A DNA stretch of 52,914 nucleotides from Candidatus Peribacteria bacterium RIFCSPLOWO2_12_FULL_55_15 (GCA_001789045.1 MFYG01000013.1:12016-64929), one strand, 5' to 3'. Shown: positions 872-50,627, counted from the stretch's first letter. Numbers and translations: made by a program. The notes: a model not told the origin generated them from the sequence alone.

Positions 872-940
872 CCGGATTTTTCCACGAAAGTCTCCCCCTG
901 CCAGACAGGGACTTTTCCCCTATACTTTCACCCTCCGACT

Positions 941-2305
941 ATGCCACAGGAATCCCCACCGACCTGTACCGCAACGCTCCGGATTACCGGGATGCATTGC
1001 CAGAGCTGCGAACTCCTCCTCGAACGCGTCCTGAAGAAGATTCCAGGCATCCTCGCCGCGGATGTGAATCATCGCACCGGTATGGCCACGATCACCGCCA
1101 ACACGAAGAACCTGCCACCAGAGAGCGCCATTGAACATGCTGTCGAGAAAGCGGGCTACCGTCTTTCCACGGAAGGAGAGCGCCGTCCCTGCGGAGAGAC
1201 GCCACAGGAAAAATGGCTCCATATCGCCGCTTCCCTCATTATCATCTTCGCGCTGTACAAGATTGTCCGTACATTCGATCTCGCATCCATCGCCCCCGCG
1301 ACATCGGACGCCGTCTCCCTCGGAGGGGTCCTCCTCATCGGCCTCGTCGCAGGGACGTCGAGCTGCCTCGCCGTCACCGGCGGCCTCCTCCTGAGCGTCG
1401 CCGCAAAGTACAACGAGACTGTCCGGGAACGCACGGCATGGGGAAAATTGCTCCCCATGCTGCACTTCAACATAGGCCGTCTCGCCTCCTACTTCATCCT
1501 CGGAGGACTCGTCGGTCTCCTCGGACAGACCATCACCATCAGCACCCGCATAACGGGGTACCTCAATATCGCCGTTGCCATCGTCATGCTCTGGCTCGCG
1601 CTCCAAATGCTCCACATTATTCCGAAGGGAAGCTGTCCCCTCCGCCCGCCGAAAGCGCTCGCGCGGTGGATTGCCGGTCTTTCCGAGAGCAAGAATCCCC
1701 TCGCCCCGCTCGCCCTCGGCGCCCTCACATTCTTCCTCCCCTGCGGCTTCACGCAATCCCTCCAACTCGTCGCGCTCGCCTCCGGTAGCTTCCTGCAGGG
1801 CGCCCTCACGATGTTCACCTTCGCTCTCGGAACTCTTCCTTCCCTCGTTGGCATCAGCATGCTCTCCGCAACCGCTAAAGGACGCTTCCAAATCCTCTTC
1901 CTCCGCTTCGCAGGGACGCTCGTCTTCGTACTGGCGCTCCTCAACATCTCTAGCGGCCTCACGCTCACGGGATTCACTCTCCCCCGCCTGGCCTCCTTCG
2001 GAGGAACAACAGCCGCCGCAGAATTGCCGGCAATAGTGAATGGTTTCCAGGAAATTACCATGCGCATCGGCCCCGGCTACTACGAGCCGAACCGCCTCAC
2101 GGTGAAAGCGGGCATTCCTGTCCGCTGGACGATTGATGGGACGCAGGCCAGCGGCTGCACAAACGTCCTCGTCGTCCCATCGCTCAACATTACCCAGGTC
2201 ATGAAAACCGGTCCTAATGTCGTTACCTTCACCCCGCCGAACGCAGGCTCCCTCGCCTTCAGCTGTTCCATGGGAATGGTCAGCGGCACCATCACCGTCA
2301 TCTAA
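941..2305 (+). CDS. HMA + DsbD_2/TauE-like membrane domain + cupredoxin-domain protein
   Basis: GMHCQSC; SSCLAVTGG and FFLPCGFTQ membrane motifs; C-terminal FSCSMGM. Confidence 0.85.
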   Translation: MPQESPPTCTATLRITGMHCQSCELLLERVLKKIPGILAADVNHRTGMATITANTKNLPPESAIEHAVEKAGYRLSTEGERRPCGETPQEKWLHIAASLIIIFALYKIVRTFDLASIAPATSDAVSLGGVLLIGLVAGTSSCLAVTGGLLLSVAAKYNETVRERTAWGKLLPMLHFNIGRLASYFILGGLVGLLGQTITISTRITGYLNIAVAIVMLWLALQMLHIIPKGSCPLRPPKALARWIAGLSESKNPLAPLALGALTFFLPCGFTQSLQLVALASGSFLQGALTMFTFALGTLPSLVGISMLSATAKGRFQILFLRFAGTLVFVLALLNISSGLTLTGFTLPRLASFGGTTAAAELPAIVNGFQEITMRIGPGYYEPNRLTVKAGIPVRWTIDGTQASGCTNVLVVPSLNITQVMKTGPNVVTFTPPNAGSLAFSCSMGMVSGTITVI

Positions 2306-2344
2306 CGCCTTTTCAATTCTCAATTTTTTATCCCCCCTCTTTCT

Positions 2345-3139
2345 ATGGCAACCATCAACTGGCAACCGGCGTCTCAAAAGAACGTCCCAAGTTCCTCAGT
2401 CCACACCGTGATGAGCCTGCCTGCCGGCAAGACAGGATCGAATCCATGGTTCGCCGTTTCCCTCGGCCTCATGGGCGTCATCATCGGCTTCGGCATAGGA
2501 AAATGGCGGATCGGTGATTTTCCTCTCCTCGCAGGCGCCCCCCCGGGCCAGGTCGCTCAGGTTCCAGCCCCCACACCTCCACCCCCGCCACCGGCGCCCT
2601 CCGGCCCCGTTCCACCGATTGACCCGAAGGCAGATCACATTCGCGGCGATCTCAAGAAAGCCCAAGTCGCGGTCATCGAGTACTCCGATATGGAATGCCC
2701 CTTCTGTAAACGCGTCCACCCGACCTACCAGCAGATCATGCAGACCTACGATGACAAGGTGGTATGGGTCTACCGACACTTCCCGCTCTCCTTCCACCAG
2801 AACGCGGAACCGGCAGCAATGGCTTCGGAATGCGCAAATGATCTTGGAGGGAATGACGCATTTTGGAAATTCACGGATAAAATCTTCGAGACACAAGGCG
2901 AATGGGCATACGAGAAGTACGCCACAGAACTCGGTCTCGATGCCGCGAAGTTCAAAGACTGCATCGCAAGCGGCAAATTCAAGCAGCATGTCCAAGACGA
3001 CATGAACGAGGGCAGTAACGCAGGCGTGAGCGGCACCCCAGGCAACTTCGTCATGAACCTGAAAACACAGAAGGCACAGGAAGTCTCCGGCGCACAACCA
3101 TTCGAAAGCTTCAAGGCCGCCATCGATGCGGCTTTCTAA
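2345..3139 (+). CDS. Membrane-anchored DsbA-family thioredoxin
   Basis: EYSDMECPFC, YRHFPL, GVSGTP, GAQP; TM helix and Pro-rich linker. Confidence 0.9.
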   Translation: MATINWQPASQKNVPSSSVHTVMSLPAGKTGSNPWFAVSLGLMGVIIGFGIGKWRIGDFPLLAGAPPGQVAQVPAPTPPPPPPAPSGPVPPIDPKADHIRGDLKKAQVAVIEYSDMECPFCKRVHPTYQQIMQTYDDKVVWVYRHFPLSFHQNAEPAAMASECANDLGGNDAFWKFTDKIFETQGEWAYEKYATELGLDAAKFKDCIASGKFKQHVQDDMNEGSNAGVSGTPGNFVMNLKTQKAQEVSGAQPFESFKAAIDAAF

Positions 3140-3164
3140 CCATACTTCTTCCCACTGCGAACAT

Positions 3165-3530
3165 ATGAAACGCCTTTTGTTACTCTCACCGATCCTCATG
3201 CTCTTACTTGCTGCCTGCACCACTGCACCTATTGTGGAACAAGTTGCTCCACAAGGACGGATTATCCCTGTCACCGCGGAACTCTGGAAATTCACGCCGA
3301 ATGTCATTCAAGCCAAACAGGGCGAAGAAGCCGTCCTCCAGATTACCGGCGTCAGCGGAACCCACGGCTTCTCGGTTCCCGACCTCGGAATCAACGCGAC
3401 AATCATCCAGGGACAGACTGTCTCCGTAACGCTCCCGACGGACAGGCCGGGCACCTTCGACTTTCGATGTTCTGTTCCCTGCGGAGCAGGGCACAAGGAT
3501 ATGACGGGACAGATCATCGTGGCACCGTAA
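3165..3530 (+). CDS. Lipoprotein with CuA-type cupredoxin domain (COX2 C-terminal-like)
   Basis: Lipobox LAAC; HGF and CSVPCGAGHKDM CuA ligand pattern. Confidence 0.8.
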   Translation: MKRLLLLSPILMLLLAACTTAPIVEQVAPQGRIIPVTAELWKFTPNVIQAKQGEEAVLQITGVSGTHGFSVPDLGINATIIQGQTVSVTLPTDRPGTFDFRCSVPCGAGHKDMTGQIIVAP

Positions 3531-3540
3531 AAAAATCCTC

Positions 3541-3577
3541 TTGACCCCGGAATGCGGAGGGGGGTAGCATATACCCC
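3541..3577 (+). promoter_or_regulatory. Putative sigma70 promoter overlapped by a CsoR-type G/C-tract operator
   Basis: TTGACC-N18-TAGCAT; inverted repeat GGGGTA-gcata-TACCCC at 3561-3577 directly upstream of csoR. Confidence 0.55.
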
Positions 3578-3598
3578 TACCCCCTTCCCCTTCCACAC

Positions 3599-3874
3599 AT
3601 GCACCACGACGTGAAGAAAAAAACACTGAGCGCCATCGGGCGGCTGGAAGGCCTGACAGCCAGGCTGCGCACGATGGTCGGGGAGGATGCCTACTGCCCG
3701 AAAATCCTCGAGATCGCCCTCGCCATGCAGGGGCAACTGAAATACATCCACGGCACCGTCCTGGAAAACCACCTGCGCACCTGCGCCGTGAAGAAGCTCA
3801 CATCCAAATCCGGAACGGAACGGGACAGGTGTATTGCGGAGCTCCTCGCAATCATCGGCCTCTCCACCCGCTAA
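3599..3874 (+). CDS. csoR: CsoR/RcnR-family metal-sensing repressor
   Basis: RLEG..YC...LENHLRTC (Cys-His-Cys) pattern; lies before copZ/copA. Confidence 0.85.
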   Translation: MHHDVKKKTLSAIGRLEGLTARLRTMVGEDAYCPKILEIALAMQGQLKYIHGTVLENHLRTCAVKKLTSKSGTERDRCIAELLAIIGLSTR

Positions 3875-3888
3875 CCCCTGTTACCCCT

Positions 3889-4110
3889 ATGCAAACAGTC
3901 GTTTCCATTCCCGGCATACACTGCCCCTCGTGCGTCGCGATGATCCGCGAAATCAGCGGCGAATTTTCTGAAATCCAGACTGTCGACGTCGATATGGCGA
4001 CGAAGACCGTCACGCTCACCCACACCAACACCCTCGATATTCAACAGTGGAAACGGGAAATCGAATCCCTCGGCGAGAACTATAAAATGGCCTCCTCCGT
4101 GTCACCCTGA
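3889..4110 (+). CDS. copZ: HMA copper chaperone (CopZ-like)
   Basis: GIHCPSC; ~73 aa; lies between csoR and copA. Confidence 0.8.
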
Positions 4111-4129
4111 CAACCATCTCCTCTCCCTT

Positions 4130-7100
4130 ATGTCATCCTCCCGTACCACCCTCGCCATCACCGGCATGCACTGCTCCTCATGCGCCGCCCTCATCACCCG
4201 CAAACTCAAGAAAACCCCCGGCGTCGAGGACGCCAACGTGAACTTCGCGGCGGCCAAGGCGCACGTGCGCTTCGATCCGCAACAGACCAAAGAACAGGAC
4301 ATGATTGCCGCGGTGGCATCCGCGGGATACGGCGCTCTCATTGCCGATGAGCGCGATCGCGACGCCGACCGCAGGCGCAGGGCAGAGGAAATCGCAACCT
4401 ACCGCTGGAAATTCTGGACGGGGCTCGTCTTGAGTCTCCCGATGCTCGCGTTCATGGTCATGGCGTTCTTCCCGCATAACGCCATGCACCAGGCCCTTCT
4501 TCCATATATGGGAATTCTCTCGCTACTTCTTGCGACACCTGTGCAATTTTGGCTCGGTTACGGCTTCTATCGCGGCATGTGGTCGAGCCTGAAGATGGGA
4601 ACATTCACCATGGACAGCCTCATCGCCATCGGCACGTCGACGGCCTACGCCTACAGCATCTACGGATTCGCCGACCATGTGCTCTCCGAGGGGACGCTGC
4701 TCGGAGAAGTCCACAACCTATACTTCGAGGTCGCCGCGCTCCTCATCACGTTCGTGCTGCTGGGCAAATGGCTCGAAGCGCGCGCGAAGGGCAGCACGAG
4801 CGAAGCGATTCAGAAGCTCATGGGATTACAGGCAAAAACGGCGCGGGTGCTGCGGAATGGAGAAACCATCGATATTCCCATCGAGGACGTGCAGGTGGGA
4901 GATACTGTCATTGTCCGGCCCGGCGAGAAAATCCCGGTGGACGGTACGATTCTCAAGGGATTGTCCGCCGTTGACGAATCCATGCTCACAGGCGAGAGCA
5001 TCCCCGTGGAGAAGAAGGAGGGGGACCGAATCTTCGGCGCGACCATGAACAAGAACGGCTCCTTCGAATTCCGCGCGGAGAAAGTCGGCGCAGAAACCGC
5101 CCTCGCGCAGATCATCCGGTTTGTCGAAGATGCCCAAGGGAGCAAGGCGCCGATACAGGCATTTGCCGATTGGGTGTCCTCGTGGTTCGTCCCCGCCGTG
5201 ATCGGCATAGCTCTCCTCACGCTCGCGACGTGGATCGTCCTCGGAGCGACGCTCACGTTCGCTCTTCTCGCCTTCGTCTCCGTGATCGTCATCGCTTGCC
5301 CATGTGCTCTCGGCCTCGCGACACCAACGAGCATCATGGTCGCGACGGGCAAAGGAGCGGAACTCGGCATTCTCATCCGTGGCGGGGAACCGCTCGAAGC
5401 GGCCAAAAAGATCGATACCATTATCTTTGATAAGACCGGAACATTAAGCAAAGGCAAGCCGGAGGTGACGGATGTCATGAGCATCTCCGAAATATCTTCG
5501 ATGGAAGAAGTTCTAAGGATTGCAGCATCATTGGAACAGGGATCAGAACACCCGCTTGCGGAAAGCATCGTAACGTACGCGCAGAACAAGGGTGTCACGC
5601 TGAGCGTAGTCGAAGCGTTCAAAGCCATCCCCGGCCACGGCGTGGAGGGGGAACTTGGTGGGAAGATGTATTTTCTCGGGAACCGAAAACTTATGGAGAA
5701 GATAGCAGTGTCTTCTTTGGAAGCCGAAGAGAAACTACAAGCGCTTGAAGAGGAAGGAAAGACGGCCATGCTGCTAGCGGATGAGAAACATGTTCTCGGC
5801 ATCATCGCTGTAGCAGATACCCTCAAGGAGACCTCGAAAGAAGCCGTCGATCAGCTCAAATGGATGGGAATCGAGGTCTACATGATCACCGGTGATAACA
5901 AGCGGACTGCTAACGCGCTCGCGCGGATTACGGGCATCGAGCGCGTGCTCGCGGAAGTGCTTCCCGAAGACAAGGCAAAAGAAGTGGAGAAATTACAGGC
6001 GGACGGCAAGCGGGTCGCCATGGTCGGCGACGGGATCAACGACAGCCCGGCGCTCGCGCAGGCCGACCTGGGCATTGCCATGGGCAGCGGCACGGATATT
6101 GCAATGGAAACAGGCGGCATTATCCTCGTCAAGAACGACCTGCGGGATGTCGTGACGGCCATCACACTCAGCCGGAAAACAGTCGGGAAAATCAGACAGA
6201 ACATGTTCTTCGCACTCTTCTACAATATCGCGGGTATCCCCATCGCCGCCGGCGCGCTCTCCTCTCTTGGTCTCACTCTCCGTCCGGAACTCGCGGGGCT
6301 CGCGATGGCGCTGAGTTCGGTCTCCGTCGTCACAAACTCGCTCCTCCTCAAAGGCTTCCGCCCCTCCCGCCGCAACTGGCTCTCGGACAGCGCTCCGGTC
6401 TTTATGACCGTCGGCTTCACCGCTCTCTTCCTCCTCTTCGCAAACATCAGCAGCGCCACCGCCGGCGAGAGCACTCTCTTCCAACGAGGACCGTTTCCGG
6501 AAATCAGTCGACCCGCAAACGACCTCTCCACTCCCATCGCGCGCAACAACGACGGCCTTGCGGTGATCACACTCGAAACGCGCGAGGTGGTCGCAGAACT
6601 CGCTCCGGGCACTACGTACGAGTACTGGACATACAACGGCACGGTTCCCGGTCCTTTTCTTCGCGTGCGCGAAGGGGAATCCGTGGAAATCCGCCTGACC
6701 CATCCTGAGGACGAAGACGAAGATACACAGAAACACGAAGTAGCGGGACACGAGAAGCACTCCATCGATCTCCACGCCGTCACAGGGCCTGGTGGAGGCG
6801 CGGCTCTCACGCAAGTGAAGGATGGCGAAACGAAAATTTTCCGCTTCAAAGCGGACCGTCCCGGCATCTACGTCTATCACTGCGCGAGCCCGCACGTGCC
6901 GACGCATATCGCCAACGGCATGTACGGCCTCATCGTCGTGGAACCCGCGAAGAAGCTCCAACCCGTTGATCACGAATTCTACGTCATGCAGGGTGAACTC
7001 TACACACATGGCGTGCTCGGCCGAACCGGCTTCCAGAGTTTCAGTAAGAGGAAAATGCTGAAGGAGGCGCCGGAGTATTTTGTCTTCAACGGACGCGTCG

Positions 7101-7447
7101 GCGCACTGCGCGGAAGCGGTGCGCTGAAAGCGAACGTGGGAGAGCGCATCAGGCTCTACGTCGGCGTCGGCGGCTTCGTGCCATCGAACTTCCACGTGAT
7201 CGGCGCAGTGTTCGACAAGGTCTACCCGGAAGGCGACCTCCTCTCGCCGCCGCACCGGAACATCCAGACCACCACGATTCCCGCAGGCGGAGCCGTCGTC
7301 GTGGAATTCACAGTGGACGTTCCCGGCACGTACCTTCTCGTCGATCACAGCCTCACGCGCTCCATCGATAAGGGAGCGCTTGGAGAAATCATCGTCGAGG
7401 GGCCAGGCAATCCGCAAATCTTCTCCGCCGTGAATCCCGATCTCTAA
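4130..7447 (+). CDS. copA: Cu(I) P1B-ATPase (CopA) fused to a C-terminal copper-containing nitrite reductase (NirK) domain
   Basis: CSSC, TGES, CPC, DKTGT, SEHP, GDGIND, YN, MALSS; then [39 protein letters not shown] from ~6550; one uninterrupted frame. Confidence 0.9.
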
Positions 7448-7465
7448 TTTTCCCCCCTTTCCTTC

Positions 7466-7666
7466 ATGTGGTGCTGCTCACGCAAAATATTGTTCATTCT
7501 CCTCGTTGTCGCAGGCATCCTCGGGCTCCTCATTGCAACAGGAACAGTGAATGCCTATGCGATTCTTCCGTTCCTTCCGTTCCTCGCCTGCCCGCTCATG
7601 TGTGTCGTCATGATGATGTTCGGACGGAAATGTGATGATAAAAGTTGCGACAAAAAATCTCTTTAA
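7466..7666 (+). CDS. Small membrane protein (DUF2933-like)
   Basis: Two TM helices and LACPLM motif typical of small proteins in cop operons. Confidence 0.6.
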   Translation: MWCCSRKILFILLVVAGILGLLIATGTVNAYAILPFLPFLACPLMCVVMMMFGRKCDDKSCDKKSL

Positions 7667-7683
7667 CTCTTTCCTTGTTTCCT

Positions 7684-8553
7684 ATGACAATGCGACACGT
7701 CACCATAGGCATTCTTCTCCCTCTCCTCCTCACAGCGTGTGCTGGTGGGAATCCCATTGCCTCGCTCAAAGCAAGCCACGTCCACGGTCTTGCAGTGGAT
7801 CGGAACGATAGTAATCGCGTGTACATCGCCACCCATGAAGGTCTCTTGGCAGTGCAGAACGACACCGACCTACAGCGCGTAGGCGGCAGCCGCGACGATT
7901 TCATGGGTTTCTCTCCCCATCCGACCGATCCAAACACTCTCTTCTCCAGTGGCCACCCAAAAGGTGGAGGAAATATCGGGTTCCAGAAATCGATCAATGC
8001 GGGGAAGACCTGGGAAAAAATCAGCAACGGCAATCCCAGTGGCCCCGCGGACTTCCACGCAATGCTCGTACATCCGTCGAATCCCGATCACATCTACGGC
8101 TGGTACCGTCTCCGCATCCACCGCTCGCTCGACGGCGGAAAAACATGGAAAATTCTCACAAAACAGCCACCAGAAGTGCTGAGTTTCGCTGGTGATTCGC
8201 AGAACGAGAACATTGTCTATATCGGCACCATCGGCAATCTCATCATGAGTACCGATAAAGGGGAATCCTGGACAAGCATGACGGACACCATCGGTTACGA
8301 TGTCGTGTTCGATATTGAGACTGACCAAAACGGCACACTCTACATTGCAACGAGAGACAATGGTATACAGCGCGTCGTCAGAAATCCGAAAGGCGGGTAC
8401 ACGCTCGAGACCATCGGGAAACTTCCGGACGGCGATGTGCCGCAGCATCTCGCGTTCGATCCGAAGAATGCAGAAGTGCTGTACGCATTCGGAAAATCCA
8501 ACACGCTCTACAAGTCTGTAGATAGAGGCAAGAATTGGCAAAAGGTGCTCTGA
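7684..8553 (+). CDS. BNR/Asp-box beta-propeller lipoprotein
   Basis: Lipobox LTAC; repeated SxDxGxTW boxes; HVHGL, ATHEGL, DFMGF, DFHAM. Confidence 0.8.
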   Translation: MTMRHVTIGILLPLLLTACAGGNPIASLKASHVHGLAVDRNDSNRVYIATHEGLLAVQNDTDLQRVGGSRDDFMGFSPHPTDPNTLFSSGHPKGGGNIGFQKSINAGKTWEKISNGNPSGPADFHAMLVHPSNPDHIYGWYRLRIHRSLDGGKTWKILTKQPPEVLSFAGDSQNENIVYIGTIGNLIMSTDKGESWTSMTDTIGYDVVFDIETDQNGTLYIATRDNGIQRVVRNPKGGYTLETIGKLPDGDVPQHLAFDPKNAEVLYAFGKSNTLYKSVDRGKNWQKVL

Positions 8554-8557
8554 GCGT

Positions 8558-9019
8558 ATGCCGACCTTCTCCCAAAATCGGGCTTTCCAACTGGTAACTT
8601 TCTTCCTAAGCAGCGCGCTCATGCATCTTCTCTGGGAAAACGCACAGGCGCCGCTCTATGCAGGGTATGAATCTTTTGGACAGCACTTCTGGATCTGTTT
8701 CAAAGCGACAGGAGGAGACCTCCTCTTCATGTTCGTGATATACGTAGTACTTGCGGTCATGCATCAGGATCTGTTTTGGATCGCGAACCGAGCTGTTTAC
8801 GCGCATTCGGCGACGTGGATCATCGCCGTATTCATCGGAATGCTCCTCGCGGTAAGCTTTGAACTCTGGGCTATCCACGTTGACCACCGATGGGCATACG
8901 CTGGAATGCCGATCATCCCTCTCCTTAAGATCGGCCTCACCCCTATCCTCCAGATGCTCATCATCCCTCCGCTCACGCTCCTCATCACCAAAAACTTCTC
9001 CCACCGGAAACAACCATGA
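8558..9019 (+). CDS. Hypothetical membrane protein
   Basis: Four hydrophobic segments, WENAQAPLY motif; translationally coupled to ackA. Confidence 0.7.
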   Translation: MPTFSQNRAFQLVTFFLSSALMHLLWENAQAPLYAGYESFGQHFWICFKATGGDLLFMFVIYVVLAVMHQDLFWIANRAVYAHSATWIIAVFIGMLLAVSFELWAIHVDHRWAYAGMPIIPLLKIGLTPILQMLIIPPLTLLITKNFSHRKQP

Positions 9020-14386: not shown

Positions 14387-14773
14387 ATGACACAAGAAGA
14401 AGCCGTCTCGCACTGGCGAAAGAGGGCGCGGGCAGAGATGAAAGCCGCGCAGGCCTTATTTGAAAAGCAAGATTCTGAGTTGTATGGCGAAGTACTTTTT
14501 CACTGTCATCTGGCGCTTGAACTTGCCTTAAAGGCGGCGTACATACGGGAGAAAAATGCAGCGGCACCTTTCACACATGATCTCAATGAGATCGCGGATG
14601 CTCTCCGGGAAGAGTCGATAAAATTTGAGCGAGAAGCGTTTGAAGAAATTACAGAGTTTGCCATTCTCTCTCGATATGGCGACGAAGAGTGGCATGCTTC
14701 TCATGCAACAAGAGAAAAAGCTGAAGAGTGGCTGTCGAAAACGCAGAAATTCATTTTCAATATTCTCCCATGA
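14387..14773 (+). CDS. HEPN-domain protein (putative toxin)
   Basis: FHCHLALELALKA, THDL, SRYGD; ATGA overlap with the MNT gene. Confidence 0.85.
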   Translation: MTQEEAVSHWRKRARAEMKAAQALFEKQDSELYGEVLFHCHLALELALKAAYIREKNAAAPFTHDLNEIADALREESIKFEREAFEEITEFAILSRYGDEEWHASHATREKAEEWLSKTQKFIFNILP

Positions 14774-15081
14774 AACAGAAAGAAGCTCTCGCTTTGGCAA
14801 AAAAATACAAACAACTGCTGAAAGAGGCAGGCATTCCAGTTTCCGCTTTGATCGTGTTTGGCTCAGCCGCAAGGGATCGGATGCACGAGCAGAGTGATAT
14901 TGATATTGCGGTCATCGGAACGTCATTCAAAGGAAACCGCATCGAAGAAATGCTGGACGTTCGAAAATTGCGTTTCTCAGTCAGCTACAAAATTCAGCCC
15001 ATCTGGTTCTATCCGGAGCACCTAGAAGATAACTACTCGACCCTTGCACAGGAAATCAAGAAGGATGGAATTGCCGTGTAA
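14770..15081 (+). CDS. Minimal nucleotidyltransferase (MNT antitoxin)
   Basis: VFGSAAR...SDIDIAV (GS-x10-DxD). Confidence 0.9.
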   Translation: MKQKEALALAKKYKQLLKEAGIPVSALIVFGSAARDRMHEQSDIDIAVIGTSFKGNRIEEMLDVRKLRFSVSYKIQPIWFYPEHLEDNYSTLAQEIKKDGIAV

Positions 15082-24496: not shown

Positions 24497-25321
24497 GTGT
24501 CCCCCTCCCTGAGAATTCTCACACTGCAAACACTCTGTCTCCTCCTTCTCTTGGGATGTCGCTCATCGCCAAAACAAAAAGAAGGACAAACGCTCCATAA
24601 TGCCAGAGATGCGACAGTGTACGTCACCATCGTTACCCGTGCACTCGCCTCACTTCCTCTCCCCACTCGACCAAGTGCATCACTCGGCATTCACCTGAGC
24701 ACATACCTCAGTAAATTGGAAACCACAGTCCATGGCGCACTTGAGAACACAGCCATCATCTACACACTCGCGCGAACTTCCGACACAACCGAAACACCAT
24801 TCATGACCATTCAGACCTTGGGGAATCTTATACAGACGAACATTGTAGAGGCCATGAACAAAAATCCGGAGCGAGGAGATGTCCTGAACCGCCATCTAAC
24901 ACTCCTCCGCTCCACACTGCAGAATGCACAGAAAGACAAAAGGAATTTAGAGGACAGTCTACACCAACTGGTGGGAAAGGAACGAGAGCAACGCAATACT
25001 CTCCGCACTCTTCAAAAGGAAATCAATGCAGCTGAGAAAGCCATCGATTTCCAAGCAGTGGGATTCCATCAGAGAGCACTGAGAGAAGCAAAGGGAGAAC
25101 ATGGAAAAACCGAAGCATCGCTTGATGAACTGGAGAAAACCATGGAAATCCTCGATGACCTCACCAGCCTCGCTGAAGAGCGACTAAATGCCATCGAAGA
25201 GAACCGAAAAGCTCTGATGGCTGGCATTCGGGTTGTGGAAATCCCCGGCCTGGGAACCTCACCCCGCCGCTCTCGAAGACAGGAACGCGGTGGGGGTCTG
25301 CTTGATTTTTCTGACCTTTAG
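24497..25321 (+). CDS. Hypothetical coiled-coil lipoprotein
   Basis: Lipobox LLGC; long heptad-rich region. Confidence 0.65.
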   Translation: MSPSLRILTLQTLCLLLLLGCRSSPKQKEGQTLHNARDATVYVTIVTRALASLPLPTRPSASLGIHLSTYLSKLETTVHGALENTAIIYTLARTSDTTETPFMTIQTLGNLIQTNIVEAMNKNPERGDVLNRHLTLLRSTLQNAQKDKRNLEDSLHQLVGKEREQRNTLRTLQKEINAAEKAIDFQAVGFHQRALREAKGEHGKTEASLDELEKTMEILDDLTSLAEERLNAIEENRKALMAGIRVVEIPGLGTSPRRSRRQERGGGLLDFSDL

Positions 25322-25380
25322 TGTCTTCGAAACATGCCTATGCCTTGAAAAGACAGTGTTTTTCTGGCAAAATGGAAGGA

Positions 25381-27420
25381 ATGCCCGAAGAAACCATAAT
25401 CAATCCGGCCGCACCCGAACCACCTACCCCTCCTATTACTATCGCTGCAACGAAAAAAAAGCTGTCTCTTTTTGATCTCGATGCTGTTCTTGGCCTCCAC
25501 GAAAAAGCAGATCACGCACGGGAAAAAGGGAAACTCACACCCGAGGAACGACAGATTCTCAAACATTACCAGGAAGGGATCCAGAAAATGCTGGATATTA
25601 TCGCGCCAGCCGCCATGGATGTTCGCAAGAAAGACATCATCCTCAACGACACATACGTCAGAACACTCTACGTCTACAACTGGCCTAACTTCATCTACCC
25701 CAATTGGCTCGCGCCCCTCGTGAACTTCGATGCAAAACTCGACATCGCACACTTCATCTATCCGGCAGACAACAAGGCCATTATGCGCATGCTCCGGAAG
25801 AAGGTGACGGAAATTCGTTCTTCGATCCGTATGTTGGAGCAACGCGGCATTGTACGAGACCCAACGCTGGAGGCCGCACTCCAAGATGCAGAGGAACTAC
25901 GCGATCTCCTCGCTAGAGGGCAGGAAAAACTCTTCCAACTCGGGATGTATGTAACAATCTATGCAGACTCGGAAGAGAAAATGAAGAAATTCCAGACCGA
26001 CATTGAATCTATCCTCGGCGGCAAGCTCGTTCTCACAAAACCTGCCATGTTCCAGATGGAACACGGGTGGACGAGCACACTCCCGCTCTGCCTCGACGAA
26101 CTCGAAATCAACCGAAACATGAATACCTCTCCACTCGCTGCAAGTTTTCCATTTTCCAGCAGCGACTTTTCCGAAGATAAAGGCATCCTCTACGGCATCA
26201 ATCGCCACAATAACAGCTTGGTTATTTTCGACCGCTTCGACCTCCCGAATGCCAATGCGAATATTTTCGCGACATCCGGAGCAGGAAAATCCTTCACAGC
26301 GAAGATGGAACTGCTCCGGTACCTCATGACCGGAACAGAGATTCTAGTCATCGATCCGGAAAATGAATACACGAATCTCTGCGAAGCGGTCGATGGGACG
26401 TTCATTCCAATCTCCATCCAAAGCTCAGCGCGCATCAACCCTTTTGACCTCCCGAAAGCTATCCGCGGAGAAGAGGCATCGCCAGGAGAAGTCCTCCGCT
26501 CTGCCATCATCAGCCTCCATGGACTCTTCAAACTCATGCTTGGAACACTTACGCCTTCAGAAGAAGGTGTTCTCGACAAGGCGATCATTGATACCTACGC
26601 GCTCCACGGCATTACCATGGACAATGCGCTACAGGAAACACCCCCTCCAACACTCCATGACCTTGTCGATGTGCTCCTCACCACAAATGGGGGAGAAAAC
26701 ATAGCACGCACATTACAGAAATACACCACAGGAAGCTTCGCTGGCCTCTTCGATCAGCCGACAAACCTGGAACTCGACAGTCACATGGTCGTCTTCCAAA
26801 TCCGTGATTTGGAGGAACAGTTACGACCAATCGCCATGTACATCGTCCTCAATTTCGTCTGGAACAAGGTGCGCTCAGAATTCAAGCAACGCATCCTCGT
26901 GGTGGATGAGGCATGGAACCTCATGCAATACGAAGATTCCGCACGCTTCCTGTACAGCATCATCAAGCGCGCACGGAAATACTTCCTCGGAGTGACAACC
27001 ATTACCCAAGATGTCGATGATTTCGTAGAATCCCCTTATGGGCACCCTATTATTACAAACTCAGCCCTCCAGATCCTCATGAAACAATCCCCTGCAACAG
27101 TAGATAGCATCCAGAAACTCTTCTACCTCACTGATGGGGAAAAATACCTACTCATGAATTCCGATATCGGACAGGGGATTCTCTTTGCTGGCTACAAGCA
27201 CGTCGCAATCCAATTCGTCGCAGGACCAGAGGAAACTGCCCTTATCACCACTAAACCGCAGGACATCATAGAACAAAAACAACAAGCTCAACGCTCCATG
27301 GAACCTTCTCAACCGCCAATCCCAGAACCACCATCCAAACTAACAGCGCCCAATGGAGAAGAATCGGAACCACACCCAACCGAAGGAGAAGAGTCATCCG
27401 ACGGAACAACCGTCCAATGA
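25381..27420 (+). CDS. VirB4/TraC-like ATPase
   Basis: GILYGIN, ATSGAGKS, IDPENEY, INPFD, VVDEAW, RARKY, TQ. Confidence 0.9.
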   Translation: MPEETIINPAAPEPPTPPITIAATKKKLSLFDLDAVLGLHEKADHAREKGKLTPEERQILKHYQEGIQKMLDIIAPAAMDVRKKDIILNDTYVRTLYVYNWPNFIYPNWLAPLVNFDAKLDIAHFIYPADNKAIMRMLRKKVTEIRSSIRMLEQRGIVRDPTLEAALQDAEELRDLLARGQEKLFQLGMYVTIYADSEEKMKKFQTDIESILGGKLVLTKPAMFQMEHGWTSTLPLCLDELEINRNMNTSPLAASFPFSSSDFSEDKGILYGINRHNNSLVIFDRFDLPNANANIFATSGAGKSFTAKMELLRYLMTGTEILVIDPENEYTNLCEAVDGTFIPISIQSSARINPFDLPKAIRGEEASPGEVLRSAIISLHGLFKLMLGTLTPSEEGVLDKAIIDTYALHGITMDNALQETPPPTLHDLVDVLLTTNGGENIARTLQKYTTGSFAGLFDQPTNLELDSHMVVFQIRDLEEQLRPIAMYIVLNFVWNKVRSEFKQRILVVDEAWNLMQYEDSARFLYSIIKRARKYFLGVTTITQDVDDFVESPYGHPIITNSALQILMKQSPATVDSIQKLFYLTDGEKYLLMNSDIGQGILFAGYKHVAIQFVAGPEETALITTKPQDIIEQKQQAQRSMEPSQPPIPEPPSKLTAPNGEESEPHPTEGEESSDGTTVQ

Positions 27421-31931: not shown

Positions 31932-32527
31932 TATACACCAAAGACAGTAAGAACAGCACCCACAAGCGTGCGTGCCACATTCACTATCACAGCTCCGGCA
32001 ATCGCCCACATAATCGCCTTCTTTGCACGATCGAACCCTTCAGGTTGTCCATGCCCCATGAGCATTCGAATCCCGGCAAAAATGATCACCGAGAGGAAAA
32101 TGACATTCATCGCATTCACCAGGATTTTCACGGCCCGATGAATAATACTCGCGGCTGTATCATCACCGACAAGTGGAGTCTCGGCAACAATTCCCACAAA
32201 TACTTGTGAGAGAATTGCGCCAAAAAGCCCCATGAGAGCATAGACAATCGCCCACTTCGCCTGAGTGGTTTTGGCATCATCACCCATGCTGATAAGCATG
32301 AGAATCCCACCCCATACAATGAAAAGAACCGAAAGTCCTACAGCCACTTCTAGGAGAAACTTTGCAATTTTCGGAAGGATTTCTACTGTCACTGTATTCG
32401 TATTCTGTGTATCACAGGCGCCAAAAGGTACTCCTTGACATAAACCTGCGCCAGCAATGACTGACATTGGAAAGAACGTAAGAACACAGGCAATCATGAC
32501 GCCGCTAAGAACAGTAAAAAATTTCAT
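31931..32527 (-). CDS. Tandem VirB2/TrbC-like pilin-domain protein
   Basis: Two TM-G...AK.AI..A-TM units. Confidence 0.65.
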   Translation of the reverse strand: MKFFTVLSGVMIACVLTFFPMSVIAGAGLCQGVPFGACDTQNTNTVTVEILPKIAKFLLEVAVGLSVLFIVWGGILMLISMGDDAKTTQAKWAIVYALMGLFGAILSQVFVGIVAETPLVGDDTAASIIHRAVKILVNAMNVIFLSVIIFAGIRMLMGHGQPEGFDRAKKAIMWAIAGAVIVNVARTLVGAVLTVFGV

Positions 32528-35523: not shown

Positions 35524-36357
35524 ATGCAGGTACACCGACACCTCTTCGAGCGCATCATTTCCAAGGAAAACCTTTTCACTGCGTGGGAGGAGTTCCGCAA
35601 AGGGAAGCAGGGACGGAAGGATGTGCAGGAGTTCGAGCGAAAGCTGGAACAGAATCTTTTTCGTCTGCACCGGGGGCTTGTGGCTGGAACCTACAGGCAT
35701 CAGCCGTACAGCGCCTTCATTATCTGCGATCCCAAGCAGCGGCGCATCCACAAAGCTACAGTCCGGGACCGTATCCTCCACCACGCGGTATTCACCGTGC
35801 TCAACCCCATTTTCGAGCCGGCGTTCATTGCCCATTCCTTCTCCTGCCGGAAAGGCAAAGGGACACACAAAGCAGTGGACGCCTTGGATCGGATGCTCAG
35901 GAGCGTGAGCCGCAACGGGACGCGGCCCTGCTTTGGCCTCAAATGTGACATCCATCAGTTCTTCGCGTCCGTCGATCACGACATCCTGCTCGGAATCCTC
36001 GAAAAACGCTTGAAGGACGAGAAAACAATCGCGCTCCTCCTTCCTATCCGCTCATTCCTCAAGGAGCATCTGCATCTCGATCTCCACCCGCACAAAGTGA
36101 CACTCCGAAAATACCGCCAGGGTATCGACTTCCTCGGCTATGTGCTTCTGCCGCATCACCGTGTTCTTCGCACGAAAGCGAGGCGCAGGATAGTGCGCAA
36201 GCTGGGCGAGCGCATCACGGCGCACAAGGCGGGATTGCTCACTGAGGAAAGTGTCGAGCAATCATTGCAGTCGTACCTCGGCGTCCTCTCTCACGCGAAC
36301 TGCTACCGACTGAGCCAGGACTTTCAGAACCAATGCTGGTTCCTGCTCCAAGAGTAG
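35524..36357 (+). pseudogene. DGR-type reverse transcriptase with an in-frame deletion of the catalytic core
   Basis: ENLFTAW, DPKQRRI, RDRILHHA, SFSCRKGKGTH, KCDIHQFF, GIDFLGY, SYLGVLSHAN present; G.PIG..TSQ and YxDD absent. Confidence 0.85.
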
Positions 36358-47506: not shown

Positions 47507-50143
47507 ATGCTTCCCTTTGATCGCTTCACGCCGAATGCCAAACTTGCCCTCCAGCTCGCAGAACAAGAGGCCAAAAACTCCAAGGGGAGCTATATTGGCT
47601 CCGAACACCTCCTCCTCGGTCTCCTCAGCATCCCCAAATCCCTCGGCTTCTCCATTTTTACCGGTGCAGGGGTAACGTTGGAAAACACGCGCATCCTCCT
47701 TAAAACAACGAAGTCCACAAATGATGAAGGGGAAAACATTAAACACGGTCTTTCTGTTTCCATCCATAACGTCATCGAGCAGTCTGTCGTCACCGCCCAC
47801 AAATATCGCCACGCAAACGTCGGCACAGAGCATCTCGTTCATGCACTGGTTTCCACAGGAAAAAATGCGGCAACCATCCTCCTCGAACAGATGCAGGTCG
47901 ACCCGGAGGAACTCCGCCTGCGCGTTGAAGAAATGTTCGGACAAATCAGCCAATTCCGGCAACAGAGCCGTGATATTGAGCAATCTCTCGAAGCATTTTT
48001 CCATGGACTCCAGGGGGCAATCGTAGGCATGCAAGCCACTCCAGGAAATGAACCGGAAGGACTACGGAGACGACGAGCGGAGAAGAACAGTAAGACGCCT
48101 GTCCTCGATTACTTCACAGATGATCTCGTCGTGAAAGCGCGAACAGGAAAACTCGACCCAACCATCGGGAGAGACAGCGAAATCGAGAGACTCATTCACA
48201 TTCTCAATCGAAAAACGAAGAATAACCCAATACTCATCGGAGAACCGGGAGTTGGAAAAACGGCCATTGTAGAAGGATTGGCTCTCCGCATCGCCAAAGG
48301 CAGCGTCCCAAGTTCACTCAACGGAAAACGGATCCTTCTCCTCAATATGGGAGCGCTCGTGGCAGGCACAAAGTATCGCGGGGAATTTGAACAACGATTT
48401 GAAGACATTATTAAGGAAGCAGCGCAAGCAGAAGGAAAGATCATCCTCTTCATCGATGAAATGCATACCGTCATTGGTGCAGGATCTGCCGAGGGATCAC
48501 TCGATGCGGCGAATATTCTCAAGCCGGCGCTCAGCCGCGGTACACTGCAAGTTATCGGCGCAACGACACTCGATGAGTACCGTACGCTCGAAAAAGACAG
48601 GGCACTGACGCGTCGTCTCCAGGCAATCGTCGTGGAAGAACCAAATATTGCGGATACTCTCGAAATCCTGCACGGCATCCGGTCATCCTTCGAGCAATTC
48701 CATCACGTCGCCATAACGGACGAAGCTCTGGAAACAGCAGTACATTTGAGTAAACGCTACATCTTTGAACGCTTCCTCCCGGATAAAGCCATTGATATCC
48801 TCGACGAAGCTGCAGCAGGGAAGAGACTCGCCCACACAGAATCCGTACCGGAAATACAGAAAATTGATGGGAAACTTGAAGAACTCACAACAAAGCAGCA
48901 GAGCGCCGTTCATGAGCAGAAATACCACATTGCACTCAAGCTGAAACAGGAGCAGCAAACACTGAAGGAACAGAGAGACCAACTAATCGCCATCAGGGAT
49001 GGAGACTGCCGCTCTCCAGTAAATATCACCGGCGATGACATCGCTGCTGTCGTTAGTAGGATGACAGGAATTCCAGTCACCAAACTCCTGAAGACCGAGA
49101 TCCGGCGTCTCACCAACCTCGAACAGCATTTTCGCAAGCACATTGTCGGACAGGATGATGCCATCCGTAACGTCGCTCGAGCTATCCGACGCAATCGCGT
49201 AGGGATTGGCGATGCCAGGCGTCCCATTGGTTCTTTCCTCTTTCTTGGGCCCACAGGCGTTGGGAAAACCGAGCTCGTACGAACAATTGCGCGAGAAGTA
49301 TTCAACCGAGAGGATGCCCTCATCAAAATCGACATGTCAGAATTCATGGAACGTCACAACGTTTCTCGCCTTACAGGCGCAACGCCGGGTTATGTGGGCT
49401 ATGAAGAGGGTGGACAATTGACCGAAATGGTCCGCCGAAAACCGTATTCTGTCATCCTCTTCGATGAGGTGGAGAAAGCACACCCGGAATTCTTCAATCT
49501 TCTCCTCCAAATTTTAGAAGATGGAGTACTGACGGACGGACAAGGAAAACGCGTTGACTTCACCAATACCATCATTGTCATGACAAGTAATATCGGGTCA
49601 GAAAAACTGAGCCGCCAGGCAGCGAAAATTGGCTTCAAGCTCCATGGCGAAGCACAAGCAGAAGAACTCCAATATGAAGAAAAACGACAGGAGGTCATCA
49701 CAGAACTCAAAGAGCACTTCCGCCCCGAATTTCTGAATCGCATTGACCACATCGTAGTCTTCAATGCTCTCAATCAGGAACATATCCGCAAAATTGTAAA
49801 AATGCATATCGAATTCCTCGCAGAACGCTTACAAAAACAGGGGTACAGTCTCTCAGTGGAACAGAGCGTCATTAACATGCTTGCAAGCGATGGTTTCGAC
49901 CCGGAATACGGAGCGCGTCCAGTTCGCCGACTCCTCCAACAACGCCTCGAAGATGAAATTGCCGAGCATATCCTGAAAGGAATCTTCCAAAAAGGAGATA
50001 CGATCTGCGTGATCAAACGCGGACCGCAAACGATAGAATTCTTGCCAAAAAAACAAAAATCACTTTCCAGTCATTCACCCCACTTCGCCCTTTCCTCCAA
50101 TCTAATCGGCACAGGTGGAAAGGAATCCACAGACATGGTATAA
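47507..50143 (+). CDS. clpC: ClpC-type Clp ATPase
   Basis: Clp_N repeats (EHLLLGL), GEPGVGKT, GPTGVGKT, DMSEFME, short UVR-like middle domain, GARP. Confidence 0.93.
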   Translation: MLPFDRFTPNAKLALQLAEQEAKNSKGSYIGSEHLLLGLLSIPKSLGFSIFTGAGVTLENTRILLKTTKSTNDEGENIKHGLSVSIHNVIEQSVVTAHKYRHANVGTEHLVHALVSTGKNAATILLEQMQVDPEELRLRVEEMFGQISQFRQQSRDIEQSLEAFFHGLQGAIVGMQATPGNEPEGLRRRRAEKNSKTPVLDYFTDDLVVKARTGKLDPTIGRDSEIERLIHILNRKTKNNPILIGEPGVGKTAIVEGLALRIAKGSVPSSLNGKRILLLNMGALVAGTKYRGEFEQRFEDIIKEAAQAEGKIILFIDEMHTVIGAGSAEGSLDAANILKPALSRGTLQVIGATTLDEYRTLEKDRALTRRLQAIVVEEPNIADTLEILHGIRSSFEQFHHVAITDEALETAVHLSKRYIFERFLPDKAIDILDEAAAGKRLAHTESVPEIQKIDGKLEELTTKQQSAVHEQKYHIALKLKQEQQTLKEQRDQLIAIRDGDCRSPVNITGDDIAAVVSRMTGIPVTKLLKTEIRRLTNLEQHFRKHIVGQDDAIRNVARAIRRNRVGIGDARRPIGSFLFLGPTGVGKTELVRTIAREVFNREDALIKIDMSEFMERHNVSRLTGATPGYVGYEEGGQLTEMVRRKPYSVILFDEVEKAHPEFFNLLLQILEDGVLTDGQGKRVDFTNTIIVMTSNIGSEKLSRQAAKIGFKLHGEAQAEELQYEEKRQEVITELKEHFRPEFLNRIDHIVVFNALNQEHIRKIVKMHIEFLAERLQKQGYSLSVEQSVINMLASDGFDPEYGARPVRRLLQQRLEDEIAEHILKGIFQKGDTICVIKRGPQTIEFLPKKQKSLSSHSPHFALSSNLIGTGGKESTDMV

Positions 50144-50150
50144 TGATGAG

Positions 50151-50627
50151 ATGGCAATTGAGACCGTAAAAATACCACAGAACGTCCTCATTGAGGACCG
50201 CATCATCGGCACCGTCACTCTGCGGCAACTGATCATTACAATAATAGGGTGCGGGATCAGCTACGCAATCTGGTCAAACCTGCAGAAAATCTTCGTCAAC
50301 ATCAGTATTCCCGTTACTATTATCGCGTGGATACCAGCAGTGATCTTCATTGCCTTCGCATTCGTAAAAGTTTACGACTTGAGCCTCTTACGCATTATAT
50401 TCCTCATGATCGAGAGGTCCGTAAAACCACAAACTCGCATATGGGCTCCTCGCTCAGGAATGAGCACCATAAATCCCCATACATTCGCAAAACCCGAAAA
50501 AAAGAAGATATCCACTGGAACAGAACAGGAAAAACCACAGAGCATCGAGAAATTGAGTTCCATGCTCGACATCTCCCAACTTGATGCGTCACAGATCTCC
50601 ATGGTTTCCTACAAACATACACTATGA
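50151..50627 (+). CDS. PrgI-family (VirB3-like) membrane protein
   Basis: KIPQNV..EDRIIG..TLRQ, two TM helices; TATAAT just upstream. Confidence 0.8.
   Translation: MAIETVKIPQNVLIEDRIIGTVTLRQLIITIIGCGISYAIWSNLQKIFVNISIPVTIIAWIPAVIFIAFAFVKVYDLSLLRIIFLMIERSVKPQTRIWAPRSGMSTINPHTFAKPEKKKISTGTEQEKPQSIEKLSSMLDISQLDASQISMVSYKHTL

Follow-up and report, generated by a model that had tools for sequence, protein, structure and literature searches.

The DNA analysed in this work (the window) is a stretch of 52,914 nucleotides from Candidatus Peribacteria bacterium RIFCSPLOWO2_12_FULL_55_15 (GCA_001789045.1 MFYG01000013.1:12016-64929), a groundwater bacterium whose genome comprises 895,810 bases in 24 contigs, is 96.3% complete and contains one copper nitrite reductase (NirK). 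Positions 4130-7447 on the plus strand form a single uninterrupted open reading frame (ORF) of 1105 amino acids in the ORF listing of the window, and in this one chain a Cu(I) P1B-1 ATPase is followed by a ninth membrane helix, then by a linker of about 30 residues and a full NirK. A fusion of a copper pump with a complete NirK in one frame had been proposed in an earlier note made from the sequence alone, and was confirmed here by the ORF, by Pfam and NCBIfam matches and by motifs. Positions given below are those of the window, and residue numbers are those of the fusion protein.

Architecture of the fusion protein

The CopA core (positions 4130-6376, plus strand) was delimited by Pfam, NCBIfam, an AlphaFold2 (AF2) model and Foldseek, and comprises an HMA domain (CSSC), eight helices and all P1B-1 motifs. 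Pfam matches on the fusion were HMA (residues 7-67, 56.9 bits, with the CxxC present as MHCSSC at 13-18), E1-E2_ATPase (233-410), a HAD hydrolase (428-646) and Cu-oxidase_3/_2 (823-941). Over residues 143-741, NCBIfam TIGR01511 (copper P-type ATPase) reached 631 bits, its cut-off being 397, and TIGR01525 reached 662.9 (cut-off 346.25); the cut-off of the E. coli CopA equivalog NF007952 was not reached (667 against 1316). In the classification of P1B ATPases, Cu(I) transport is marked by CPC in helix 4, YN in helix 5 and MxxSS in helix 6, and this membrane signature is complete in the fusion (CPC 390-392, YN 698-699, MALSS 726-730). The pump motifs TGE (287), D434KTGT (434-438) and GDGIND (633) are also present, and are invariant in 15/15 aligned fusions. 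The AF2 model of the whole protein was computed from an 83-row alignment and had a mean predicted local distance difference test score (pLDDT) of 88.6. With the first ~745 residues, Foldseek returned 7R0G_A (target-normalised TM-score 0.89, 49% identity), and 3RFU and ATP7B were also matched. From its families, motifs and fold, the pump part is predicted to be a working Cu(I)-exporting P1B-1 ATPase.

Canonical CopA has eight membrane helices, with the N- and C-terminus both cytoplasmic. The fusion departs from this plan, as hydropathy and the AF2 model gave the eight core helices and a ninth added to them, a departure in architecture that leaves the pump core unaffected. The ninth helix (positions 6377-6478, plus strand) spans residues ~750-783 with a hydrophobic core at 755-773, in agreement with the extra hydrophobic helix noticed earlier at ~6390-6450. 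Four Lys/Arg residues lie on its N-terminal side, and the sequence after it is net acidic. It is followed by a flexible linker (positions 6479-6556, plus strand; residues ~784-809), with pLDDT below 50 at residues 781-786 and the first long strand starting at residue 810. A ninth helix placed after eight core helices should bring the C-terminus to the outside, and the odd number of helices, the bias in charge and the AF2 model together predict that NirK lies there, opposite the cytoplasmic ATPase domains, as the earlier note had supposed. Base composition showed no break at the junction between pump and NirK.

The NirK domain (positions 6503-7435, plus strand) was recognised by TIGR02376 and by the Foldseek match to 6THE, and is made up of two cupredoxin folds with type-1 and type-2 copper sites. 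TIGR02376 (copper nitrite reductase) scored 304.6 bits against a cut-off of 296.3 over residues 792-1102, and 308.2 bits when the whole genome was scanned; an insertion before the type-1 His, described below, keeps the margin small. The last ~310 residues matched 6THE with a target-normalised TM-score of 0.94, a root-mean-square deviation of 2.4 and 51% identity, and AniA with TM-scores of 0.85-0.88. The NirK motifs were aligned with those of 6THE, 2DV6, 2ZOO and AniA 1KBV at ~55-60% identity.

Conservation of these motifs was counted over 31 fused rows, which represent 28 distinct proteins, and the ligand and catalytic roles are those of established NirK structures. All the residues named in the earlier note (type-1 and type-2 ligands, the Asp of SIDLH and the His of FHVIG) were found and could be aligned to solved NirKs. 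HSIDLH (positions 6758-6775, plus strand; residues 877-882) holds type-1 His877, catalytic Asp880 and type-2 His882 and is kept in 31/31 rows. Type-2 His917, type-1 Cys918, His926 and Met931 (positions 6875-6922, plus strand; YHC at 916-918) are likewise kept in 31/31, so that the type-1 set H877, C918, H926 and M931 is found in every fused row. FHVIG (positions 7190-7204, plus strand; residues 1021-1025) holds catalytic His1022 and the Ile gate, Ile1024; its pattern was found in 30/31 rows, the sole miss (P0023) reads LHVIG, and the His is thus kept in 31/31. VDHSL (positions 7340-7354, plus strand; residues 1071-1075), kept in 31/31 rows, supplies His1073 and completes the type-2 set of H882, H917 and H1073. 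In solved NirK trimers the third type-2 His comes from the adjacent subunit. With all ligands and the Asp/His/Ile set in place, the NirK part is predicted to be a catalytically complete, class II-like NirK.

An acidic, His-bearing insertion stands immediately before the type-1 His (positions 6704-6757, plus strand) and appears as an 11-residue gap in the NirKs of the Protein Data Bank (PDB). The corresponding spacing is 38 in the window protein, the shortest of the fused clade, 38-78 across 28 fused rows, 48-80 in 13 rows of NirKs fused to a DsbD module, and 27 in 7/7 lipoprotein NirKs of the same class. The insertion therefore marks both membrane-fused NirK clades and is not seen in canonical NirKs (spacing 27). 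This loop probably borders the donor-docking surface. The identity of the NirK part as a multicopper oxidase (CueO-like, or a two-domain laccase) was not borne out, as residues 790-1105 contain none of the HxH motifs of a trinuclear cluster, of which seven neighbouring three-domain oxidases of relatives contain 4-5 each.

The integrity of the frame was checked against sequencing runs. Nine runs contain at least 95% of the words sampled from 5800-7600, and a check of 4000-7700 was carried out in 30 bins with the per-run contigs of 4 runs rather than raw reads. Contigs of 4/4 runs cover all 30 bins, with no variant letters or indels listed, and the junction (6350-6560) is bridged in each: X1 record 3 (4354-7700), X3 record 16 (6014-7700), X8 record 23 (6322-7354) and X9 record 30 (6329-6646), of which X8 and X9 were not flagged as possible source runs. 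The stop, frameshift or chimeric join that such a check might have revealed did not appear. One X3 contig skips 157 nucleotides (6039 to 6197) with only 23 letters on one side, and a depth peak at 5984-6107 falls in the conserved GDGIND region; both are read as contigs of other organisms' pumps, and neither is at the junction. No RNA runs were listed among the 20 runs. Against the copy of a genome of the same genus (G313; synonymous divergence, dS, ~0.6), the ratio of nonsynonymous to synonymous substitution (dN/dS) was 0.154 for the pump, 0.233 for residues 746-808 (helix 9 and linker) and 0.142 for NirK; in more distant pairs dS was saturated and the trend in dN/dS was the same.

Distribution of the fusion and the nine-helix pumps

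An architecture search with the NirK part, restricted to proteins of 607-1934 amino acids, returned 20 further clusters with E1-E2_ATPase and NirK (P0003 and P0005-P0023; 1119-1324 amino acids; 65-72% identity in the NirK part), along with two fragments. Where named, the 20 clusters are labelled Peregrinibacteria or Patescibacteria. Fifteen of the fused proteins align end to end at 72-78% identity with all pump and NirK motifs invariant, and in public annotation the fused proteins are called copper or heavy-metal ATPases only. Among 301 genomes sampled from the class, all strong NirK matches of the bacterium's own GTDB family (7/40 genomes sampled, and G000) lie in frames of 1167-1321 amino acids, and those of the other families in frames of 367-552. 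A second sample of 61 family genomes, queried with the pump and helix 9, added G302, G312, G313 and G327, which brings the fused family genomes to 12. G082 contains an extra NirK fragment of 105 amino acids elsewhere in its genome.

The earlier note would have been refuted by a unique fusion whose relatives encode two separate genes, and this was not observed: relatives keep the fusion, and 0/19 loci with a pump ending at helix 9 have a separate nirK downstream. That assembly or gene calling joined two adjacent genes is a reading for which no supporting point was found, the genome being metagenome-assembled in 24 contigs. It is opposed by the independent contigs of 4/4 runs that bridge the junction with no indel listed, by the recurrence of the architecture in 20 other clusters and 12 family genomes with helix 9 and linker conserved, and by purifying selection across the junction, and we regard its probability as negligible.

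A second NirK was seen in the same-genus genome G313, 1.6 kb downstream of its fusion (locus L081, G313:C22, 3830-5461, 544 amino acids), laid out as a lipobox, a NirK with the insertion, and an extra domain (module A, below). The window contains no second NirK of this kind, and the interval holds acetate kinase, phosphoketolase and acyltransferase genes.

Helix 9 carries the motif NW.S..AP..M in 31/31 fused rows, and a homologous helix is found in CopAs that end with it or carry other cargo. When 1.84 billion representatives were scanned in full with phmmer, the alignments of the closest pumps ran across helix 9 as far as query residues 771-781, and helix 9 is present in 20 of the 150 proteins listed; the named helix-9 pumps are from Patescibacteria or Parcubacteria. 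Some end at helix 9 (P0125, P0126, P0136, P0158 and P0165; 775-791 amino acids), others continue past it into a beta-propeller (P0124) or an alpha/beta hydrolase (P0129), and in P0121, P0131, P0138 and P0145 it is followed by an extension that belongs to no Pfam family. Within the family (19 loci fetched; 61 genomes), most nine-helix pumps end exactly at ...FA(K/R)(I/L)SS and the others carry one of three modules, named A, B and C; in canonical pumps of sister families, core helix 6 is followed by 7-8 residues. By these alignments, helix 9 predates the fusion and marks a clade of nine-helix CopA in the candidate phyla radiation (CPR), in which the C-terminus predicted to lie outside is either empty or bears swappable modules.

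Module A (~170 amino acids) contains six Cys and three HxH pairs, the latter formed by six invariant His. It had no Pfam or NCBIfam match, protein atlas scores did not exceed 0.89, and Foldseek gave no match at E <= 0.001, the best VIA hit being 3U7Z at Z 6.7, below the trusted level of that tool. Module B is recognised by MHLIVVR..L..F.HLHP and module C by two repeats; neither matched a Pfam or NCBIfam family. Modules are carried by the pumps of L047-L049, L051 and L053-L056 and by P0121, P0123, P0138, P0145 and P0156. As separate genes, module B lies directly after a helix-9-only pump in L073, and module A lies on the other strand ~1 kb from one in L076. Most fusions contain NirK and then module A. 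NirK is the only module in G312:C40, in the protein of the window and in that of its same-genus relative; the window protein finishes in ...NPDL, just where the NPDP motif that opens module A begins in relatives. Nine-helix CopA pumps may be modular, a pump with an outside workbench.

A NirK tree was built with IQ-TREE from 70 rows (28 fused, 14 DsbD-fused, 8 loci of the class and 20 hand-picked others) drawn from 135 domain sequences, of which 65 were left out. The pump-fused NirKs form one group (100/99) whose sister is the group fused to DsbD_TM (joint branch 100/99), and the lipoprotein NirKs of the same class are placed elsewhere. Of the unfused NirKs in other families of the class, 7/8 are lipoproteins, with a second domain and a His/acid-rich linker, and 1/8 is anchored by a single helix; from its sequence pattern, the second domain is presumably DUF1573-like. 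Seven of these eight loci also hold a CsoR, CopA, multicopper oxidase or DsbA-like gene. The DsbD_TM (CcdA-like)-NirK fusions (P0024-P0037 and P0079; 705-776 amino acids, NirK C-terminal) occur in Wolfebacteria and other CPR bacteria and hint at a thiol-relay link to NirK. One further protein, P0087 (856 amino acids), joins an NnrS membrane domain (45.6 bits) to a NirK domain.

The pump tree was built with FastTree from 58 rows, with local supports only, after L058 and L059 (partial) and L057 (motif-less) were dropped. Nine-helix pumps form one group with support 100, and the pumps nearest to that of the window are helix-9-only ones of G316 and G310, at 80% identity. Almost identical pumps were found in different genera (L034 of G215 and L079 of G312; L033 of G127 and L048 of G312; end branches 0.004-0.03), which could be due to recent transfer or to a mixed bin, G312 having four pump copies.

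The copper cluster and the host genome

The fusion gene is preceded on the plus strand by csoR and copZ, the three genes being co-directional with gaps of at most 20 nucleotides. CsoR, a copper-sensing repressor of the family of that name, is encoded at 3599-3874 (Trns_repr_metal, 44.5 bits) and is kept upstream of the fusion in L031, L033, L034, L035, L044 and L045. The CopZ-like HMA copper chaperone is listed at 3829-4110 (HMA, 36.8 bits), with its true start likely near 3889 because HMA begins at residue 24 of the listed ORF. The order CsoR-CopZ-fusion was found in 6/7 fused relatives, and CopZ in 7/7. Before csoR lies an inverted repeat with G/C tracts (3549-3594), whose arms GGAGGGGGGTAG and CTACCCCCTTCC are 92% complementary and 9 nucleotides apart; it appears similar to the consensus of a CsoR operator, and is a possible operator of this kind. 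A promoter-like site, TTGACC-18-TAGCAT at 3541-3570, overlaps the repeat, the count of such sites being not above that in shuffled sequence; in the scan as a whole, promoter and terminator counts did not exceed shuffles.

Further upstream, the first gene of the cluster (941-2305, plus strand) encodes a membrane protein of 454 amino acids with HMA (47.4 bits), DsbD_2 (119.3 bits) and C-terminal Cupredoxin_1 (35.5 bits), in which the DsbD_2 domain is of the transmembrane thiol-relay-like kind. The same gene stands upstream of the fusion in L031, L033, L034 and L035. An antisense ORF at 920-2377 (minus strand, 485 amino acids) had no Pfam match and was set aside as probably a by-product of G+C-rich sequence. 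A DsbA-like thioredoxin-fold protein with an N-terminal helix and CPFC follows at 2345-3139 (plus strand; Thioredoxin_4, 90.3 bits; DSBA, 60.4 bits; NF041057, 81 bits, below cut-off), and its gene adjoins the fusion in L032-L035. A DsbB homologue is present in the genome, so this DsbA would not need NirK for its reoxidation. A DsbA-cupredoxin fusion was considered as an electron path and rejected, the Cupredoxin_1 matches belonging to the HMA-DsbD_2-cupredoxin proteins and not to DsbA. At 3126-3530 (plus strand) a CuA-type cupredoxin lipoprotein is encoded, with an LAAC lipobox, the motif H...CxxxCxxxHxxM and Pfam matches to Cupredoxin_1 and COX2; its matches to CoxB and to the CuA region of NosZ (E ~1e-12) are below the cut-offs, and residues 34-132 align with the CuA domain of Thermus ba3 (2CUA/6PTY), ligand motif included. 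Cupredoxin_1 proteins were found in 5/5 fused genomes tested.

Downstream of the fusion are a small Cys-rich membrane protein (7466-7666, plus strand; DUF2933-like, 19.5 bits, below cut-off), of which a 65% identical copy adjoins the fusion in L033, then a BNR-repeat protein, and then a conserved membrane protein (8558-9019, plus strand) with 63-64% identity to proteins in L032 and L034 and no Pfam or NCBIfam match. All six fused relatives with a retrieved downstream flank (L031-L035 and G127) have a multicopper-oxidase-like gene next to the fusion, and the 7 neighbours of this kind that were tested (2 at fused and 5 at unfused loci) are all three-domain oxidases. In this class nirK belongs to copper homeostasis, and here it does not lie in a denitrification cluster.

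In the host genome, searched at 96% completeness, no match was found to a haem-copper oxidase (COX1) or nitric oxide reductase (NOR), to cytochrome c, to TatC, or to DsbD_TM and VKOR, and no plastocyanin- or azurin-type protein scored over the cut-off. NnrS gave no match, but control genomes were equally silent, so that this negative carries no weight. No copper P1B ATPase other than the fusion was found, Cu-oxidase_3 matched only its NirK part, and no other multicopper protein was found. Genes near the cluster are fermentative (acetate kinase, phosphoketolase), and the cell that the earlier note thought probably non-respiring does appear to be so from the missing COX1/NOR, cytochrome c and TatC. 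The CuA lipoprotein at 3126-3530 stands alone, in a genome with no match to a haem-copper oxidase and no second match to the NirK or multicopper models.

Proposed working, rival readings and known systems

The reading preferred here, with moderate confidence, is that of a nitrite reductase that is tethered to the membrane, induced by copper and loaded by the pump to which it is joined. The ninth helix would turn the chain to the outside, where NirK would follow on the flexible linker of ~30 residues. The NirK part would be threaded out unfolded during membrane insertion and would fold outside, since no Tat system was found; with TatC missing, its copper would also have to be acquired there. 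Tat export was rejected as a route, as SRRNWL before helix 9 is Tat-like but its RR is not conserved (RK, KK, KR) and no TatC was found. A NirK trimer, expected by homology as solved NirKs draw their third type-2 His from the next subunit, would tie three pumps together. Copper for NirK's type-1 site and its type-2 site would be taken from Cu(I) released by the protein's own pump, the cell's only one, some 30 residues away, with transcription tied to copper through CsoR and the pump fed by CopZ. Nitrite would then be reduced to nitric oxide (NO) with electrons from an outside copper carrier, for which the CuA lipoprotein is the best candidate. The role is likely to be nitrite removal or an electron sink for a fermenter, and not energy conservation.

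Several observations weigh against loading by the pump, and many of them favour its main rival, in which the nine-helix CopA is a general platform that keeps outside domains at the membrane of a cell lacking an outer one, and NirK, using it much as other NirKs use a lipid anchor, gains from it only copper co-expression; this we judge possible, if less probable. Helix 9 is not specific to NirK, as most nine-helix CopAs of the family stop there, others carry A, B or C, and outside the family the cargo includes domains that are not copper enzymes (the alpha/beta hydrolase of P0129 and the beta-propeller of P0124). In the pump tree NirK carriers are interleaved with non-carriers, with at least 7 gains or losses needed, and near-identical pumps differ only in the NirK cassette (for example L033, with NirK and A, and L048, with A only). 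NirK therefore behaves as a cassette, set in frame between helix 9 and module A, that is often lost or exchanged, perhaps by recombination or transfer, and that comes and goes between near-identical pumps. Sister NirKs in this clade use a lipobox, a single helix or a DsbD-like module as their anchor, with lipobox and single-helix forms within the same NirK clade, and those of sister families are lipoproteins in 7/8 cases and single-helix proteins in 1/8. Close NirKs, the second copy of G313 included, thus work without a fused pump, and fusion is not required for copper loading. The CuA lipoprotein adjoins the fusion in only 2/8 fused loci (the window and L032), and no NO-consuming enzyme (COX1/NOR, Hcp) was found in the 96% complete genome. 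On the other hand, for anchoring a single helix or a lipobox would suffice, and still a copper pump recurs as the partner; separate genes for modules A and B were also found near helix-9-only pumps (L076 and L073), which fits a functional link; module A itself has its six invariant His in three HxH pairs; and class-wide even the unfused NirK accompanies CsoR and CopA. Because helix 9 is not NirK-specific, carriers are interleaved and sister NirKs are otherwise anchored, loading of NirK by its own pump is taken as plausible, with plain anchoring as a serious rival.

The type-1 site might instead be where Cu(I) released by the pump is oxidised, with nitrite at the type-2 site (or, at a slow rate, O2) receiving the electrons. 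A type-1 site is reducible by Cu(I), which is how CueO works, and the protein would be an anoxic counterpart of CueO, in which the acidic His-bearing loop over the type-1 site captures Cu(I) and the pump delivers substrate and cofactor alike. The gene lies in a copper-stress operon of a genome that has no other multicopper oxidase, whereas six fused relatives have such a gene beside the fusion; no cytochrome c or plastocyanin/azurin-type donor was found; and every one of the 28 fused and 13 DsbD-fused rows has the insertion before its type-1 His, while canonical NirKs lack it. Yet the window insertion is the shortest of its clade, with 11 extra residues, the true nitrite reductase set of Asp, His and Ile is fully kept, the NO produced would be toxic with no NO sink found, and a CuA cupredoxin, a possible ordinary donor, is encoded next door, so that we consider oxidation of Cu(I) an unlikely function. 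If true, it would mean that copper is detoxified without oxygen in a cell that lacks a respiratory chain, another multicopper oxidase and cytochrome c. Still more improbable is a polyprotein in which helix 9 is an internal signal peptide and cleavage by signal peptidase after ...ISSA frees NirK. Helix 9 does resemble a signal peptide in its n-h-c layout, most of 15 aligned proteins carry small residues at -3 and -1, and P0277 (89% identical) is annotated as a free NirK of 347 amino acids starting at a Met inside helix 9. However, P0278 and P0279 start at an internal Met on contigs of 1361 and 1470 nucleotides, so the start of P0277 is probably an effect of gene calling. The end motif ...FA(K/R)(I/L)SS is kept in pumps that stop there with nothing to release, and is therefore a feature of the helix and not of cleavage; the fused protein P0019 has Val at -1; and a cell that lacks an outer membrane would lose a free NirK, the sister NirKs being all anchored.

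With solved CopA (7R0G, 3RFU, 4BBJ and 3J09; 45-49% identity, TM-score <=0.90), the fusion shares the motifs, the eight-helix core, the N-terminal HMA and an operon with CsoR and CopZ. It differs in the ninth helix and in the 330-residue enzyme, predicted to be outside, that are added after core helix 6, and in lacking a cytoplasmic C-terminal end. With class II NirK (AniA 1KBV and 5UE6; the cores of 6THE, 2DV6, 2ZOO and 3ZIY) it shares ~47-60% identity, all ligands and the Asp/His/Ile set. AniA is a lipoprotein tethered to the membrane N-terminally; the tether of the fusion is a polytopic copper pump and not a lipid, the acidic His-bearing insertion is added, and neither a fused nor a nearby donor of the cytochrome c or azurin type was found. 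The three- and four-domain NirKs (Hyphomicrobium 2DV6, Ralstonia 3ZIY and the Bradyrhizobium parent of 6THE), which were the next-best long matches after the CPR fusions in the architecture search, likewise join NirK to a functional partner, but that partner is an electron donor, whereas here it is a copper transporter and the fusion crosses the membrane. The DsbD_TM-NirK proteins of Parcubacteria and Wolfebacteria, the sister clade, also place NirK at the outside C-terminus of a polytopic protein and share the insertion; their partner is a thiol-relay-type module, and the related DsbD_2 protein of the window is a separate gene (941-2305). Exported Cu(I) is known to supply cuproenzymes, by CcoI/CopA2 for cbb3 oxidase and by Salmonella CopA/GolT through CueP for SodCII. 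In those systems the proteins are separate and intermediate chaperones take part, whereas here a single chain unites pump and client. P0223 (1416 amino acids) and P0268 (1693 amino acids) provide a second example of a client that requires copper and is attached to a copper pump: in them a copper P1B ATPase is joined to ETR1_N (105-108 bits), a membrane domain of the ethylene-receptor type that binds copper, with GAF/PAS and histidine-kinase domains behind it.

How extracytoplasmic enzymes acquire copper is only partly understood, and the evidence for supply by P1B pumps is of a genetic, indirect kind. Pump and copper enzyme joined naturally in one chain, and conserved in this form across a bacterial family, constitute a gene-fusion argument for a pump-fed copper route, and provide a ready experimental system in which one construct gives pump and client at 1:1. 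It also bears on why bacteria that lack a respiratory chain keep nirK. The nine-helix clade, with interchangeable modules of which three belong to no known family, points to unstudied copper-handling domains and may be of wider use.

A CPR NirK clade with conserved copper ligands and a cupredoxin as proposed donor is described in the main text of Danczak et al. 2017 (PMC5581439), where the role of NirK in CPR cells without a respiratory chain is called puzzling; the words 'fused', 'fusion' and 'ATPase' have 0 occurrences in that main text, which describes neither the copper-operon setting nor the pump fusion. PMC8756737 reports cytochrome-NirS fusions in Chloroflexi, and in its appendix a nir gene has nearby CopZ, a DsbD_2-cupredoxin protein, a CsoR-like gene and a copper ATPase, a similar neighbourhood with no fusion. 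PMC10457146 links the expression of CsoR, copA and nirK in Bradyrhizobium. In the literature searched (nirK of CPR, Peregrinibacteria and Peribacteria; CopA-NirK fusion; P1B ATPase with NirK; nirK with CsoR) the fusion is not described, and the earlier note's impression that it is not a known architecture holds, as no paper on it was found. Both halves are well-known families; their joining is absent from that literature, and new here are a helix 9 older than the fusion and a modular nine-helix CopA clade of CPR bacteria.

Elsewhere in the window, adjacent HEPN (65 bits) and nucleotidyltransferase (37 bits) genes were found at 14387-15078 in the usual layout of an HEPN/MNT toxin-antitoxin pair. 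Type IV secretion-like genes are scattered at 25321-27417, 31934-32527 and 50115-50624 (TraG P-loop ATPase, T4SS pilin and PrgI family), and an ORF of 277 amino acids at 35524-36354 contains a weak reverse-transcriptase domain (36 bits).

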